A DNA stretch of 64,000 bases from an uncultured Gemmatimonas sp. Its GTDB lineage: Bacteria; Gemmatimonadota; Gemmatimonadetes; Gemmatimonadales; GWC2-71-9. Each line of letters starts with the position of its first letter. The first letter of the stretch is position 1. The stretch spans positions 29,101-93,100 of the forward strand of contig CAZUES010000015.1 of the NCBI GenBank assembly GCA_964619465.1, given 5' to 3'. Below are positions 45,046 through 55,017 of the stretch, one piece after another. The notes under the pieces were generated by a model. That model saw only the letters and a list, made by a program, of their open reading frames with translations. It was not told the DNA's origin and did not search any database. The translations under genes and the position numbers were made by a program.

Positions 45046-46887
45046 CTACCGTGATGCGGAGCCGCCGAGTACGTCGAGCACTACCGGGACTCGGCCGAGT
45101 GGCGCGGAAACTTGCGCGCCCTGGACCCGGTCCCGCACGGCAGCAAGCATCTCGCGGCCGATCGCCACCCCTTCCGCCAGCGCCGCCTCTTTGCCGCGTT
45201 CGCTGGCCACGCGCATCCGGTCCAGGATCCCAGCCGGCACCGTCACCCCCGGCACCTCGTTGGCCAGAAATTCGGCGTTCCGGAGCGAGACCAGCGGCCA
45301 GATCCCGGCGATGATCGGCAGCCGGAACGATTCGACCTGTTTGAGGAAGCGGTCGAGCTGGTCCAAGTCGAAGACCGGTTGCGTGATGGCGAACTCCGCG
45401 CCGGCCTCGACCTTCCAGGCGAGCCGCCGAAGCTCGCGGTCGGGGTCGACGGCCGCCGGGTTCACGCCCACGCCGATCACGAACTGCGTCGGCTTGCCCA
45501 GCGGATTTCTGCCCGGATCGAGCCCGCGGTTGAGTTGGCTCACCAGATTGGCGAGGCCGATGGCATCGATGTCGAAGACGGCGGTCGCGTCGGGGTAGGG
45601 GCCCATCTTGGGCGGGTCGCCGGTGACCAGGAGCAGATTGCGGAGCCCGGCCGCGGCGGCGCCCAGCAGGTCGCTCAGCATGCCGAGCAGGTTGCGGTCG
45701 CGACAGGCGTAGTGGACCACCGATTCGATGCCGACCTGCTGCTCGATCATCAGCCCCGACAAGAGCGCTCCCATCCGGCTTTGCGCGCGGGGGCCGTCGG
45801 GCACATTGACGGCGTCGACGCCGGCGGCCTTGAGCGCCCGGCACTGCTCCAGCATCGGCGTCGGGTCGGTACCGCGGGGAGGCACGATCTCCACGGTCGT
45901 GATGAACTCGCCCCGCGCCAGCTTGGCGCCGTAGCGTGAGCGTTCGGCCAGCGGGGTCGGCTCGACGCCCCCGACGACCGGCCCCGCCGGCTCCGCCACG
46001 ACCACCTGATGCGGAGCGACCGACTTGACGAAGTTCTTGATGGTCTTGATGTGGTCTGGGGTGGTTCCACAACAGCCGCCGACGAACCGGGCGCCCGCCT
46101 CCACCATCCGGCGGGCGTACTCCGCCATGTACTCGGGGCTCGCCATGTAGATCTTGCGGTCGCCCACTTCGCGGGGCAGGCCGGCGTTGGGTTGGGCCGA
46201 GATCGGCACCCGGACCACCGGGGCGAGCCGCTCGACCACTTCAAGGATGGTCTGCGGACCGACCGAACAGTTGACGCCGATCACGTCGGCGCCGGCGGCT
46301 TCCAGGGCCGGGCCGAACGCCTCGGGCTCGCTGCCGTACGCGGTGCGCCCGTCCTGTCCGACCGTCATCTGGACCACGATCGGCAGGTCGCTGACCCGGC
46401 GGATCCCGGCCAGGGCAGCGCGCGCCTCCTCGAGATCGCTGAAGGTTTCGAGGATGAATCCGTCGACGCCGCCGGCCACCAGGCCGGCCGCTTGCCGTGC
46501 AAAGGCCGACTCGGCCTCCGCAGCGGAGGTTTCGCCGAGGGGCTCGAGTCGGACCCCCAGCGGCCCGATTGCTCCGACCACGGCCGCGCGACCGTCGGCT
46601 GCTTCGCGCGCCACCACGGCCGCCGCCGCATTCAGTTTCTCGGTTTCGTCGGCCAGTCCGTAGTGCGCCAGCTTGAACGGATTGGCGCCGAAGGTGTTCG
46701 TTTCGATCAGCTCGGCGCCGTTCCGGACGTATTCGCGATGAATGTCGCGGACCAGGTCAGGTTGCCGCGCCGCCAGCTCGTCGAAGCAGACGTTGAGGAA
46801 GACGCCTCGGCCGTACAGCATCGTCCCCATGGCCCCATCGAAGACGTGGACGGCGCCGTCGGCAATCAGATCTTTGAGCGTTGGCAT
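45046..46887 (-). CDS. Bifunctional homocysteine S-methyltransferase / 5,10-methylenetetrahydrofolate reductase (YitJ-like)
   Basis: The N-terminal Hcy-binding domain shows FDGAMGTMLY, ETNTF and [11 protein letters not shown] (Zn-binding Cys residues). The C-terminal MTHFR domain shows VEIVPPRG, VTGDPP and ITQPVFD. Confidence 0.9.
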   Translation of the reverse strand: MPTLKDLIADGAVHVFDGAMGTMLYGRGVFLNVCFDELAARQPDLVRDIHREYVRNGAELIETNTFGANPFKLAHYGLADETEKLNAAAAVVAREAADGRAAVVGAIGPLGVRLEPLGETSAAEAESAFARQAAGLVAGGVDGFILETFSDLEEARAALAGIRRVSDLPIVVQMTVGQDGRTAYGSEPEAFGPALEAAGADVIGVNCSVGPQTILEVVERLAPVVRVPISAQPNAGLPREVGDRKIYMASPEYMAEYARRMVEAGARFVGGCCGTTPDHIKTIKNFVKSVAPHQVVVAEPAGPVVGGVEPTPLAERSRYGAKLARGEFITTVEIVPPRGTDPTPMLEQCRALKAAGVDAVNVPDGPRAQSRMGALLSGLMIEQQVGIESVVHYACRDRNLLGMLSDLLGAAAAGLRNLLLVTGDPPKMGPYPDATAVFDIDAIGLANLVSQLNRGLDPGRNPLGKPTQFVIGVGVNPAAVDPDRELRRLAWKVEAGAEFAITQPVFDLDQLDRFLKQVESFRLPIIAGIWPLVSLRNAEFLANEVPGVTVPAGILDRMRVASERGKEAALAEGVAIGREMLAAVRDRVQGAQVSAPLGRVPVVLDVLGGSASR

Positions 46888-46990
46888 CTGGCCTCCGAAA
46901 ACACGAAACCCGAGGCTAAAACGGCCCCGGGCGGCGTTTTAGCGTTTGTTTAACGTGGCCGCAATCAGCGCAAATCACCACGATCCTATC
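46888..46990 (-). promoter_or_regulatory. Conserved structured 5' leader (candidate SAM-II-like riboswitch with terminator), copy 1
   Basis: A 48-nt core at 46935..46982 is near-identical to 52776..52823. The sense RNA has the hairpin CGUGGU-17 nt-GCCACG and the tail UUAAACAAACGCUAAAACG. It can form either the antiterminator GCUAAAACG/CGUUUUAGC or the terminator CCCGGGGC/GCCUCGGG (plus strand 46909..46931), which is followed by UUUCGUGUUUU. The GGAGG RBS follows. Confidence 0.6.
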
Positions 46991-47034
46991 CTAGCAAGCT
47001 AATGCTGCGACAAGGGCCACGCCATTGCGACGCC

Positions 47035-47079
47035 TTGACGGGCGGCGCGGCGATCGGTAGTTTGTAACCAAATGGTTAC
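47035..47079 (+). promoter_or_regulatory. Sigma-70-like promoter (TTGACG-17-TAGTTT) and 16-bp perfect palindrome operator of the ArsR-family gene
   Basis: TTGACG lies at 47035..47040, followed by a 17-nt spacer and TAGTTT at 47058..47063. The palindrome GTAACCA-AA-TGGTTAC at 47064..47079 spans the predicted start site and the ATG at 47072. Confidence 0.5.
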
Positions 47080-47416
47080 GCAAAAGCCGACGCCCGTCTT
47101 CGATGCCATCGCCGACCCTACCCGCCGCGCCATTCTCGACGCTCTCCGGCGCGGCCCGCTCTCGGCCGGCGAAATTGCCGATCTCTTTCCGGTCAGCCGG
47201 CCGGCGGTCTCGCGCCACGTTCGGGTGCTCCGCCAGGCGGGGTTGGTGACGGAGCGGCGGGTGGCTCAATCGCGGATCTATGCCCTCGATCCGGAGCCGC
47301 TCCGCACCGTCGAGCAATGGCTCACACATTACCGCGTCTTCTGGGCAGCTCGACTGATGGACCTCAAGCGGTATGTCGAAGCGGAGACCAAACCTGCCCC
47401 CCGCCGGAAGGGATAA
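47072..47416 (+). CDS. ArsR/SmtB-family transcriptional regulator
   Basis: FDAIADPTRRAILDALRRGPLSAGEIADLFPVSRPAVSRHVRVLRQAGLV is a typical HTH_20 sequence. Confidence 0.9.
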   Translation: MVTQKPTPVFDAIADPTRRAILDALRRGPLSAGEIADLFPVSRPAVSRHVRVLRQAGLVTERRVAQSRIYALDPEPLRTVEQWLTHYRVFWAARLMDLKRYVEAETKPAPRRKG

Positions 47417-47422
47417 AAGCAG

Positions 47423-48322
47423 ATGACCTGGGTTCATGAGTTCTCGACCAAGCTGATGGGATCGCCGGATCGCGTCTACCGCGCTCTGATCGACGACGGG
47501 GAACTCCGTAGCTGGTTCGCCGAGCATGTGGAGGTCGAGCCGAGTGTCGGTGGCAAATATCGGTTCTGGGGCAAATACACCCTGGGGCTTCCGACGGCAG
47601 CCGATGCCGATCAGCGGCTCGTACGGCTGGTCGCCGATCGGTCGCTCGCGTTTACCTGGAACCTCTTCGGCGTACCTACCGAGGTCTCCGTCGCCCTGGC
47701 TGCGGCATCATTCGACAGCGGTACCCCGGCCCCTTCCGGGCCCGTCACGGCGGTAACGGTGCATCACACTGGGGAGCGTGCCCTGGGCCAGCCCCGCGAG
47801 AAAGAACTGATCGACGATTTCTGGAGGCTGGCGTTCGGAAACCTGGGGGCGCACCTGACGGGTGCGGAGCTGCTGCGCCCGGACTTCGCCGACCCGTCAC
47901 CGGAGATCCGCTACAGCATCCTGATCGACGCGGCGCCGTCGGCCGTATTCAGGGCGCTGACCGAGCCGGAGGCGCTGAACCGCTGGATCGCCGCTGCCGC
48001 TGTCGTCGAACCACGGGTCGGCGGGCGCTTCGAGTTCGGATGGAAGTATCAGATCGAAGGCCGCGACGTGCTGGGCGGTCCAACCCGGATCCTGGAACTG
48101 GTTCCCGATCGGCGCCTGGTGGTGGACTGGCCGGACTGGCGTGGTGATCCGGCGGTGCCTGTGCAGCAGATCAGCTTCGATCTGGAGCCCGTGGGCGGGC
48201 AAACGCGCCTCACCCTCGTACATGCCGGCTTCGAGCGGGCGGCGGATATCAGCGACTATCCGTTCGGCTGGGGCCATTTTCTCAGTCGGCTCGTACCTGT
48301 GGCGACTGCATTGGCCGCGTGA
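47423..48322 (+). CDS. Tandem SRPBCC (AHSA1/Aha1-like) domain protein
   Basis: There are two repeats of the AHSA1 pattern (SPDRVYRALIDDGELRSWF and APSAVFRALTEPEALNRWI ... LVHAGF). An ArsR gene followed by an SRPBCC gene is a common pairing. Confidence 0.8.
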   Translation: MTWVHEFSTKLMGSPDRVYRALIDDGELRSWFAEHVEVEPSVGGKYRFWGKYTLGLPTAADADQRLVRLVADRSLAFTWNLFGVPTEVSVALAAASFDSGTPAPSGPVTAVTVHHTGERALGQPREKELIDDFWRLAFGNLGAHLTGAELLRPDFADPSPEIRYSILIDAAPSAVFRALTEPEALNRWIAAAAVVEPRVGGRFEFGWKYQIEGRDVLGGPTRILELVPDRRLVVDWPDWRGDPAVPVQQISFDLEPVGGQTRLTLVHAGFERAADISDYPFGWGHFLSRLVPVATALAA

Positions 48323-48376
48323 GGCTGGATGGCTCAGCGCCCGCGCATCGCGGGCAAAGCGGGCCAGGATGCGCGG

Positions 48377-48844
48377 CTATCGCCGAAACGACTCGTGCTC
48401 GTGCGCGAGGCCCCAGCGTCCCTGGCGCCGCTCGAACACGCCCGTCCAGGTGCCCTGCAACGTGTCCGCAGCGGTTCCGGTTGGTGTGCCCCAGGCGAGT
48501 CGTAGTCGGCCGACTACCAGTACGGCTTCCGGCCCCATGGCGCGGTACCGGAGATCCTCGAACGCGATGAACGTGCCCTTGGTCTTGGTCGAGTCCCACG
48601 CCAGGTAGATCGCGTGCAGCGAGTCCCGCTTCGTGATGAACAATCCGTGGTTGCTGAACACGAGTGGGTCTTCCAGCACGTACACGGTCGTCATCTGCGC
48701 ACCATCCTGCCGCCGCACTGCGTCGGTGAGCCGGGCCATCAAGGTCTCGATCTCGGCGAACCGTGTGGTGTCTTGCGTTTGACCTGCGAGGGGCTGATTC
48801 GGCGCCGCCCAGAACATCACCGCGACCAGCCAGACGATCCGCAT
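48377..48844 (-). CDS. Secreted NTF2/SnoaL-like (DUF4440-like) protein
   Basis: ORF 48377..48946, trimmed to MRIVWLVAVMFWAAPNQPLAGQ (signal peptide). It shows an NTF2-like pattern ending in GVFERRQGRWGLAHEHES. Confidence 0.65.
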   Translation of the reverse strand: MRIVWLVAVMFWAAPNQPLAGQTQDTTRFAEIETLMARLTDAVRRQDGAQMTTVYVLEDPLVFSNHGLFITKRDSLHAIYLAWDSTKTKGTFIAFEDLRYRAMGPEAVLVVGRLRLAWGTPTGTAADTLQGTWTGVFERRQGRWGLAHEHESFRR

Positions 48845-49004
48845 CTCATCGCTCCCGTGCCGGTGGTACCGTATTCGAAAACGACGCGACCCCAGGATCT
48901 CGGAATCGCGGGTGGATCGACCGAATGGACCGCGGCCGGCCGGCATTGTCGTGCGACGGACTATGAACCTGGATGACCGCAGCTGGCGTACTACGGTGCG
49001 CAGG

Positions 49005-52727
<3,723 letters not shown>

Positions 52728-52830
52728 ACAGGTCCCCTTAACGAAATACCCGGGGCTGAAAACGCCCCGGGCAAGCGTTTTAGCGATTGTTTAACGTGGC
52801 CGCAATCAGCGCAAATCGCCACGAAACCCT
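52728..52830 (-). promoter_or_regulatory. Conserved structured 5' leader (candidate SAM-II-like riboswitch with terminator), copy 2
   Basis: The core is at 52776..52823. The sense RNA has CGUGGC-17 nt-GCCACG and UUAAACAAUCGCUAAAACGC. It can form the antiterminator GCUAAAACGC/GCGUUUU(C)AGC or the terminator CCCGGGGC/GCCCCGGG (plus strand 52749..52771), which is followed by UAUUUCGUU. The AGGGGA RBS and the metH ATG follow. Confidence 0.6.
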
Positions 52831-52863
52831 TCGGTTGTCCAGCTCATAATCTAAGCAAGCGTC

Positions 52864-55017
52864 ATGCCCGACGCCAATCCGCGGGGGAGCCCAGATCGAG
52901 TACCCGTATATTACCGCCACCCAATGCCTAGAAGATTCATGTCTCGACTTCCAATCCGTCGCCCGCCGCCGACTCGAACCACCGACCAGGTCGACTCGTA
53001 TCACGGGGTCGAGGTTTCCGACCCGTATCGCTGGCTCGAAGACACCGAGTCGCCGGAAACGACCGCCTGGATCGCCGAGCAGAACCAGGTGACCTTCGAC
53101 TACCTGCAGACGTTGCCGATGCGGGAGCCGCTCAAACGGCGCCTGACCGCGCTGTACGACTATGAGCGGTTTTCCATTCCCTACCATCGGGGTGGCCGGT
53201 ACTTCTATACCCGGAACAGCGGACTGCAGAATCAGGCCGTGCTCTATGTCCAGGACTCGCTGGCTGCGGAAGGGCGGGAGCTGCTCGATCCCAACCGGCT
53301 CTCGGCCGACGGAACCATCGCACTCACCCTGGTCGAGCCGAGCCCGGATGGCGACCTGCTCCTGTACGGTACCGCCACCAGCGGCTCGGATTGGCAGGAG
53401 TTTCGGATTCGCCAGGTCGATGACGGGATCGATCGGGTCGATCATCTCCGCTGGGTCAAGTTTTCGCGAGGCAGTTGGACCAGAGACGGGAAGGGATTCT
53501 TCTACTCGCGCTATCCCGAGCCGGCGCCTGATGCCGCGCTGAGCGGGCAGAATCGCGATATGAAGGTGTATTACCACCGCCTGGGTTCCGACCAGAATGA
53601 GGATCTGCTGGTCTATCAGCGTCCGGATGAGCCGGACTGGGGCTTCGGTGCGGAGGTAACGCACGACGGCCGCTATCTGATCCTGACGGTCTGGCTCGGC
53701 ACGGATTCGAAGACACGGGTCTACTACCAGGATCTGGGCGATCCGATGGCGCCGAGCCTGGACGGAGCCGTGGTGAAACTGCTCGATGAATTCGATGCGG
53801 CTTACGGTTTCATCGGCAACGAGGGCCCGATCTTCTACTTCCGCACCGACCGGGATGCCCCGCGCGGACGAGTCGTTGCTATCGACACGCGCACGCCGGC
53901 TCCCGACGCCTGGCAGGAAATCATCGCCGAGGCGGAGCAGCCGCTCGACGGCGTGACGCTGGTCGGCGGCCGGCTGGTCGCTTCGTATCTGGTGGACGCC
54001 AAGTCACGGCTTGCCATCGTCGATCTGGACGGCAAGGCGGTGTCGGACATTCCGCTGCCCGGCATCGGGACTGCAGGCGGCGTTTCCGGAGAGCCGGATC
54101 GTTCGGAGATGTTCTTCGCTTTCACCTCCTTCCTGTTCCCGACCTCGGTGTACCGCTACGACCTGCTTACCGGGGATCTCGCCCCGTTCCGATCGTCTCG
54201 GCTCACCTTCGATCCGTCGGCGTTCGTCACGGAACAGGTCTTCGTCGCGAGCCCCGACGGTACGCAGGTACCGGTGTTCCTGACCCATCGCAGGGAGCTG
54301 AACCGGGACGGAACCCATCCGACCCTGCTGTATGCGTACGGTGGGTTTAATGCGAACCTGACGCCGTTCTTCGATCCATCGATGATCGCCTGGCTGGAGC
54401 AGGGCGGGATCTACGCGCAGGCCAATTTGCGCGGCGGCGGCGAGTATGGTGAAGACTGGCATCGCGCCGGGATGTTCGAGAAGAAGCAGAACGTCTTCGA
54501 CGATTTCATTGCGGTGGCCGAGTATCTGATTCGGGAGAGGTATACCGGATCGGATCGGCTGGTGGTCGAAGGCGGCTCCAACGGCGGCTTGCTGGTCGGT
54601 GCGGTCATGACGCAGCGCCCTGATCTCTTTGCGGTTGCGCTGCCGGATGTCGGGGTCATGGACATGCTGCGCTACCACCGCTTCACCATCGGTTGGGCCT
54701 GGGCCGCCGAATATGGTTCGGCCGATGATCCGGCGTACTTCCCGGTGCTTCGGGCCTACTCGCCGCTGCACAATCTGAAGCCGGGCACCGACTATCCCGC
54801 GACGCTGGTGACCACGGCAGATCACGATGACCGCGTAGTACCCGGGCATTCGTTCAAGTTTGCCGCTGCGCTGCAGGCGGCGACTGCCTGGGCGCGACCC
54901 GCCTATATCCGGGTCGAAACCAAAGCCGGCCATGGAGCCGGGAAACCGATTGCCAAGATGGTGGAGGCGCGCGCCGACGTGCTGGCGTTCGCGCTGGCCA
55001 ACACCGGCGGCAACTGA
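52864..55017 (+). CDS. Prolyl oligopeptidase (peptidase S9A)
   Basis: [17 protein letters not shown] is the typical N-terminus, followed by a beta-propeller. The catalytic domain contains [12 protein letters not shown] (Ser), DHDDRV (Asp) and GHGAGKP (His). The start is uncertain: 52864, 52924 or 52939. The later starts would leave room for the metH leader and promoter. Confidence 0.9.

Follow-up and report, generated by a model that had tools for sequence, protein, structure and literature searches.

The SAM-I (S-box) riboswitch, which precedes yitJ and other met genes of B. subtilis, brings about the SAM-dependent termination of a homocysteine methyltransferase/methylenetetrahydrofolate reductase gene, a logic that is the same as the one proposed below; its aptamer, a four-way junction, is unrelated to the small pseudoknot of SAM-II. 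The SAM-II class (Rfam RF00521, SAM_alpha; metA motif, Corbino et al. 2005, PMC1273637; PDB 2QWY) consists of a P1 helix and an H-type pseudoknot, and its architecture comprises the elements P1, L1, P2a, P2b and L3, with a triplex of L1 and P2b that is bridged by SAM (PMC3326309, PMC5352136). It is located in the 5' leaders of methionine genes, and SAM binding has been assayed for the metA RNA of A. tumefaciens (PMC1273637). Many representatives have a promoter a few nucleotides before P1 and a terminator after P2 (Corbino et al., PMC1273637), and the class is mostly associated with terminators (Barrick and Breaker, PMC2258182). As the position of the terminator between P2 and the ORF suggests, such members are regarded as OFF switches (PMC1273637, PMC2258182; S. 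meliloti metZ, PMC9373788); the mechanism of the terminator type had not been established experimentally as of PMC2258182. In the case of S. meliloti metZ (sRNA RZ; PMC9373788), a Rho-independent terminator comes after the aptamer and is predicted to form once SAM is bound. The reconstructed proteobacterial SAM_alpha regulon is composed of metY, metA, metX, metC, hom and metW, and metH is not included (PMC4239095).

The window analysed here, that is, the whole 64 kb stretch of DNA (G+C content 64.5%), harbours two leaders of this kind, located 5.9 kb apart, one (copy 2) before metH and the other (copy 1) before a YitJ-like gene. The aptamers and the genes that follow them are:

52756..52832, minus strand: SAM-II aptamer, copy 2 (RF00521 match)
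49005..52727, minus strand: metH, cobalamin-dependent methionine synthase, 1240 aa (NCBIfam NF007024, all five Pfam domains)
46916..46991, minus strand: SAM-II aptamer, copy 1 (RF00521 match)
45046..46887, minus strand: YitJ-like bifunctional homocysteine S-methyltransferase/methylenetetrahydrofolate reductase, 613 aa (NF006396; Pfam S-methyl_trans and MTHFR)

Both aptamers exceed the gathering score of RF00521 (36 bits), with E-values computed over the whole 64 kb window: copy 2 (52832..52756) scores 43.5 bits (E 1.7e-6) and matches the full model from position 1 to 79, and copy 1 (46991..46916) scores 43.6 bits (E 1.6e-6), likewise over the full length of the model. No other Rfam match was found in the window, and a clade-specific covariance model (R1), to which copy 2 scores 82.6 bits, retrieved no more than the same two copies from the window, with E allowed up to 1. 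A permissive Rfam rescan of the copy 2 locus gave as runner-up the SAM-II long loop family (RF01726) at 30.2 bits, which is below its gathering score of 44, the remainder being noise; this family has a related binding core, but the loop here is short. MetH scores 2100.6 bits against NF007024 (cut-off 1497), the YitJ-like protein 704.5 bits against NF006396 (cut-off 453), and the Rfam match of copy 2 ends 28 nt before metH. In the annotation, both leaders should be labelled SAM-II. The sequence-only reading, which had described a riboswitch-like leader with a metabolite-sensing role, is borne out, although it had not recognised that the element belongs to a known class.

In copy 2, the published layout of P1, L1, P2a, P2b and L3 maps directly onto the following segments:

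52818..52823, minus strand: P1 5' strand CGUGGC, pairs with GCCACG at 52795..52800
52807..52817, minus strand: L1 loop strand GAUUUGCGCUG, aligns to the Rfam consensus GAUUUG
52801..52806, minus strand: P2 5' strand AUUGCG (pseudoknot), complementary to CGC-U-AAAA at 52778..52785
52795..52800, minus strand: P1 3' strand GCCACG (Rfam alignment and pairing in relatives)
52786..52794, minus strand: L3 linker UUAAACAAU, fits the Rfam consensus UUAAAcAAg
52778..52785, minus strand: P2 3' strand CGCUAAAA, fits the Rfam consensus CGCUAAA (also P2 pair counts and antiterminator fold)

The conserved SAM-II segments GAUUUG, UUGC, UUAAACAA and GCUAAA are all present, and L1 (GAUUU), L3 (UUAAAcAA) and the tail (a U and an A-run) align to the consensus with high posterior probability. 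P1 consists of six pairs, which are also formed in relatives, and the H-type pseudoknot P2 joins the 3' part of the P1 loop to the 3' tail GCUAAA; as in relatives, the aptamers are placed in the 5' leaders of genes for methionine metabolism, here metH and the YitJ-like gene. The P1 loop falls short of the Rfam consensus by 4 nt, and the host is most likely a member of Gemmatimonadota, not of the alpha-proteobacteria. By homology, the U-run of GAUUUGCGCUG would be the counterpart of the strand that, in the solved structure of SAM-II, engages P2b in a triplex.

Alignment of the two leaders revealed that the 48-nt core of copy 2 (52823..52776, CGTGGCGATTTGCGCTGATTGCGGCCACGTTAAACAATCGCTAAAACG) differs from that of copy 1 (46982..46935) at 2 of 48 positions, so the near-identity and the retained pairings reported earlier hold. 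The first difference, C/T, lies at the P1 closing pair, which is C-G in copy 2 and U-G in copy 1, as had been noted from the letters; the second, T/A, falls in the L3 linker. The differences had been called structure-preserving, which is correct in that pairing is kept; however, there is no double compensation, only a one-sided change of C to U giving G-U, and true covariation emerges only once relatives are added to the two copies. A recent duplication of the leader within the genome was considered and found to be unsupported: the similarity of either copy to metH leaders of other organisms (up to 89/95 nt) equals or exceeds that between the two copies, hence a very recent duplication is not indicated.

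Relatives of MetH were sought among one genome per GTDB species, and the closest proteins (67-71% amino-acid identity) belong to MAGs of Gemmatimonadales/Gemmatimonadota, from which the origin of the window in this phylum is deduced as most likely; no protein identical to this MetH was on record in public assemblies. In five such genomes SAM_alpha lies directly before metH (Rfam, 37.6-50.3 bits), and in a sixth genome of Gemmatimonadota it precedes metF-metH. A scan of metagenomes with a pattern for the short-loop aptamer of this clade yielded at least 120 contigs, mostly from JGI; 95 of the 102 downstream ORFs among the matches listed are metH-like. Two downstream ORFs are unusual. One aptamer (L132, 422..473) precedes a non-metH ORF that has an N-terminal zinc-ribbon-like segment and received no Pfam assignment, while another (L120, 10182..10234) is followed by an ORF that begins like MetH and goes on as a hydrophobic protein of 493 aa, also without a Pfam assignment; a rearrangement or an assembly chimera could account for it. 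Outside the phylum, the R1 model applied near metH in 70 non-Gemmatimonadota genomes (alpha-proteobacterial, Bacteroidota, actinobacterial and other) gave only two weak matches, L016 (4887..4990) and L039 (3244..3299). These are divergent SAM-II-like aptamers near metH in a MAG labelled beta-proteobacterial and in another labelled gamma-proteobacterial, with P1 GCGCC/GGCGC (CGUGG/CCACG in the present clade), a longer loop and the tail GCUAAAGCG; the aptamer of L016 is directly upstream of metH and has its own terminator.

These distributions also bear on the possibility that the repeated segment is a dispersed repeat, for example a REP-like element or a mobile fragment, with no relation to methionine genes. 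Apart from the sheer presence of two near-identical copies 5.9 kb from each other nothing speaks for it, and it appears extremely improbable, since both copies stand in the 5' leaders of homocysteine methyltransferase genes, no third one was detected in the 64 kb by Rfam or by the clade model, and the related contigs carry one copy each among the matches listed, with no further SAM-II copy and with metH behind nearly all of them. The occurrence at many unrelated loci, which the earlier reading had named as the observation that would overturn it, was therefore looked for and not encountered within the window or on the related contigs.

The secondary structure was evaluated in 88 distinct aptamers among the matches listed. 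The pattern used for the collection fixed much of the aptamer, so that its conservation is partly by construction and the covariation limited; the platform that follows was not constrained. P1 is paired in 100% of cases (closing pair C-G in 59, U-G in 29), P2 in 99.1%, and the two helices together in 99.6%, whereas sliding the partner strand by 1-3 columns in the same 88 aptamers, as a control, lowers pairing to 30-45%. The third P2a pair, which adjoins P1, varies between G-C (64), G-U (14) and A-U (7), being unpaired in 3; most other P2 columns are invariant, partly owing to the search pattern. An alternative P2 formed from the 5' half of the P1 loop (GAUUUGCG) was dropped, as only the 3' half (UUGCG) covaries with the tail, and the model with the 3' half is preferred for this covariation and for its fit to the published L1/P2 architecture.

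Downstream of the aptamer, the leader of metH contains an intrinsic terminator and a competing helix, the elements of which are as follows:

52773..52784, minus strand: antiterminator 5' strand GCUAAAACGCUU (MFE pairing with 52755..52767)
52747..52773, minus strand: copy 2 intrinsic terminator hairpin, 10 pairs, 8 of them G-C, 7-nt loop (terminator scan and folding)
52755..52767, minus strand: antiterminator 3' strand GGGCGUUUUCAGC (MFE of the transcript cut at 52755)
52740..52748, minus strand: U-rich tract UAUUUCGUU, interrupted and weaker than in most relatives (sequence and terminator scan)
52733..52739, minus strand: Shine-Dalgarno-like AAGGGGA, 5 nt before the ATG (sequence)
46908..46932, minus strand: copy 1 terminator hairpin (terminator scan and folding)

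The copy 2 hairpin is separated from the P2 3' strand by a linker of 5 nt and is built of GCCCGGGGC (52772..52764), the loop GUUUUCA and GCCCCGGG (52756..52749), followed by UAUUUCGUU. Its predicted stability is -21.6 kcal/mol (z -5.2), that of the copy 1 hairpin -16.3 kcal/mol (z -3.1). Both were detected in the terminator scan, in accordance with the earlier observation that the arms GCCCCGGG (copy 2) and GCCUCGGG (copy 1) lie opposite the same sequence, CCCGGGGC. The antiterminator strands proposed from the letters, GCUAAAACGC/GCGUUUU(C)AGC in copy 2 and GCUAAAACG/CGUUUUAGC in copy 1, were recovered in the MFE structures of truncated transcripts, and the ribosome binding site together with the metH ATG at 52727 was also correctly placed, AAGGGGA being read at 52739..52733.

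When the copy 2 transcript is cut at 52755, the antiterminator is the MFE structure, with 12 pairs, one bulged C and -12.0 kcal/mol; in copy 1 it is the MFE structure of the transcript cut before the terminator 3' arm (-14.3 kcal/mol). The strand GGGCGUUUUCAGC begins within the terminator 5' arm, of which it takes in the last 4 nt, runs through all of the loop and ends after 2 nt of the 3' arm. In the predicted fold, the rest of the 5' arm is left as a hairpin loop of 5 to 6 nt and, being confined there, makes terminator and antiterminator mutually exclusive. Blocking of the tail, which mimics the SAM-bound pseudoknot, leaves the terminator as the predicted fold. The P2 3' strand CGCUAAAA, common to the pseudoknot and the antiterminator, is accordingly the switching strand of the modelled device. 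In the full-length fold of copy 1, the A-rich tail can alternatively pair with the U-tract. By sequence and folding, an intrinsic terminator after the aptamer and an exclusive alternative helix that uses an aptamer strand constitute a terminator/antiterminator platform. The leaders described here hence belong to an established family and an established type of platform, and represent neither a new kind of RNA nor a new mechanism.

The platform is widespread among the relatives. In 99 of 109 distinct leaders among the matches listed, a hairpin with 6 bp or more precedes a 9-nt stretch containing 4 U or more; the stems of these covary, with 63 distinct pairs of terminator stem sequences. At least 8 contiguous nucleotides of the terminator top or loop are complementary to the tail in 87 of the 109 listed leaders, compared with 39 of 2180 shuffles (1.8%). 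Because the strand that the aptamer contributes to the antiterminator also binds SAM, it does not vary, and so the support for this helix consists of kept complementarity and some changes from U-A to U-G, with no double compensation. The remaining ∼20% of the listed relatives have no long complementarity to the tail and must use another arrangement. In a Gemmatimonadota MAG with SAM-II before metF-metH (L005, 3960..4150), the antiterminator layout is different: no UUUU run occurs in the terminator loop, and the complement of the tail AAAGC is a GCUUU located at the 3' foot of the hairpin. A sub-group of eight leaders (L094, L118, L121, L124, L142, L158, L184, L187) has the tail GCUAAAACGG, a longer terminator without the UUUU loop, and tail complementarity limited to ∼5 nt (ACGGC/GCCGU), and its metH-like ORF is not preceded by a clear Shine-Dalgarno sequence; these leaders may use a different switching arrangement.

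The same data allow the control of translation to be weighed. According to the classic metX model, SAM-induced folding would hide the ribosome binding site, either directly or via downstream structure, and the hairpin would serve structure or stability only. Such a role has precedents, as the solved SAM-II RNA sequesters the Shine-Dalgarno sequence in P2b (PMC3326309) and the S. meliloti metA riboswitch works on translation (PMC9373788), and full-length folds of copy 2 do pair sequence flanking the hairpin with the AAGGGGA region. Here, however, AAGGGGA lies ∼39 nt past the P2 3' strand, outside the pseudoknot, and the intervening G+C-rich hairpin and U-tract recur in nearly all of the listed relatives with a loop specifically complementary to the tail. 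This complementarity would have no role in a purely translational model, which counts against the latter, and we regard translational control of metH by this leader as unlikely.

Transcriptional control by the terminator is therefore the preferred reading: the leader of copy 2 is, with high probability, a SAM-II riboswitch that acts, most likely, as a transcriptional OFF switch for metH. The terminator of copy 2 is far more stable than the antiterminator (-21.6 and -12 kcal/mol), for which reason read-through at low SAM would have to be under kinetic and not equilibrium control. The dominance of the terminator is also what would be expected if it were largely constitutive, the main product then being a short riboswitch sRNA with a function of its own, as proposed for S. 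meliloti RZ and RA1/RA2, and SAM tuning the stability of the RNA or the promoter. In this species, riboswitch sRNAs are more abundant than mRNA from read-through, and no SAM dependence is predicted for the metA terminator (PMC9373788). Nevertheless, no antiterminator driven by SAM-II is predictable for S. meliloti metA (PMC9373788), whereas the one found here has 9-12 bp and is kept in ∼80% of the listed relatives, which makes a predominantly sRNA-producing leader rather more doubtful still than translational control. Production of an sRNA is compatible with the OFF switch, and both can hold.

The region upstream of the aptamer contains a putative promoter and a conserved motif at the predicted start of the transcript:

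52872..52877, minus strand: predicted -35 box TTGGCG, spacer of 18 nt to the -10 box
52848..52853, minus strand: predicted -10 box TAGATT, at -30 from P1
52834..52840, minus strand: GGACAAC, RACAAY motif at the predicted transcript 5' end (conservation in relatives)

The hexamer TAnnTT occurs at -34..-22 from P1 in 83 of 120 listed upstream regions and in 59 of 2400 shuffles (2.5%), and 75 of these 83 listed relatives have an nTG element 16-19 nt upstream of the -10 box; in copy 1 the corresponding TAGCTT is found 19 nt before P1. The promoter-like consensus at -55..-20 from P1 reads TTG(c/g)c, a spacer of 16-18 nt, and T(T)AG(c/g)TT (L001-L004, L020, L081-L200), and TAnnTT may reflect the housekeeping -10 consensus of Gemmatimonadota. 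The RACAAY motif at -12..-7 from P1 (L081-L200), with A at ∼0.7 at -9 and -8 in 119 listed relatives, is similar to the start of the Rfam consensus (aacuuauu). Copy 1 lacks the motif; that of copy 2 lies 6 nt farther from P1 than usual. The 9- to 10-nt motif GCTTGCT(T)AG, previously pointed out as shared by the two copies, is indeed present upstream of both, yet the exact run is 7 nt, and such a run arises in 483 of 2000 shuffles (24%) of the two 70-nt upstream regions. The motif is not conserved in relatives, and its overlap with the predicted -10 box is in another register in copy 2 (TAGATT) than in copy 1 (TAGCTT). As its core is at chance level, it was rejected as a separate regulatory element.

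On this basis, the following course of events may be proposed. Transcription would start ∼15-20 nt before P1 from the predicted promoter TTGGCG-N18-TAGATT, and the nascent RNA would form the P1 hairpin CGUGGC/GCCACG. When SAM is abundant, it would be bound, by homology with the solved SAM-II, in the pseudoknot that AUUGCG, from the 3' half of the P1 loop, makes with the tail CGCUAAAA, and the U-rich L1 strand would occupy the groove of this pseudoknot. The tail being locked, the hairpin GCCCGGGGC-GUUUUCA-GCCCCGGG would form and the polymerase would stop at the U-rich tract, short of metH. At low SAM, the free tail would pair with GGGCGUUUUCAGC before the terminator 3' arm is made, and the antiterminator would trap the rest of the terminator 5' arm in its 5-nt loop, so that no terminator arises and metH is transcribed. 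Copy 1 would serve as the same device for the YitJ-like gene 5.9 kb away, and the two leaders would make up a small SAM regulon that acts on the final step in the synthesis of methionine.

That two unlinked methionine genes share one leader had been put forward as a strong argument for such a regulon. The common SAM-II leader stands, but the argument is weaker than it seemed, as the two genes are adjacent in one operon in the closest genomes. In related genomes of Gemmatimonadales, and likewise in over 20 metagenome contigs among the matches listed, the yitJ-like gene directly follows metH and a single riboswitch is located before metH; the two genes overlap by 4 nt in one genome (L002, 8717..8720) and are 5 nt apart in another (L003, 8750..8756 region). 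In the window, the genes are separated by ∼2.1 kb (46888..49004), in which the following genes are found:

48377..48946, minus strand: SnoaL-like gene
47423..48322, plus strand: AHSA1/SRPBCC gene
47072..47416, plus strand: ArsR regulator

The neighbours are divergent, a prolyl oligopeptidase gene upstream of metH and the ArsR-AHSA1 pair upstream of the YitJ-like gene, which here has a predicted promoter and a SAM-II leader of its own. The window thus represents a split metH-yitJ operon with a second copy of the leader, and one metagenome contig among the matches listed (L186) has arrived at the same split solution. A terminator-like hairpin at 48885..48910 (minus strand), ∼95 nt past the metH stop codon, probably marks where the metH transcript ends, yitJ being no longer adjacent.

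Compared with the known systems, it is the lineage and the regulon (metH, yitJ, metF) that appear to be undescribed within the literature searched. With subscription journals and Rfam species lists left aside, no description of SAM-II in Gemmatimonad* and none of SAM-II/SAM_alpha with metH was found. Gemmatimonadota, which are common in soil, have to our knowledge not had their methionine regulation described. The present leaders precede metH, yitJ-like genes and metF, in contrast to metY, metA, metX, metC, hom and metW in Proteobacteria (PMC4239095), and differ from the similarly organised S. meliloti metZ leader (PMC9373788) in both the gene and the phylum. Gemmatimonadota belong with Bacteroidota to the FCB group, and SAM-II has been reported in Bacteroidota (PMC1273637); in view of this kinship its spread to Gemmatimonadota is not surprising.

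As regards annotation, metH and the YitJ-like gene of this locus may be marked as SAM-repressed, the direction of regulation being that predicted from the platform. The “alpha-proteobacterial” SAM riboswitch is widespread in probable soil Gemmatimonadota, with more than 100 distinct leaders among the matches listed, and its target there is methionine synthase, as opposed to the genes of homoserine activation and sulfhydrylation in Proteobacteria. On balance, and with limited confidence, we favour the broader view that Gemmatimonadota use SAM-II as the main control of the final methyl transfer (metH-yitJ, metF-metH and split copies), via a stereotyped minimal platform in which the terminator apex doubles as an antiterminator strand, with the conserved 5' RACAAY as an additional part. 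If this is true, the SAM-II class extends beyond Proteobacteria and Bacteroidota and its known regulon shifts. Given the very regular pairing of the antiterminator with the terminator loop, these leaders provide a clean natural test set for transcription termination driven by a small pseudoknot.
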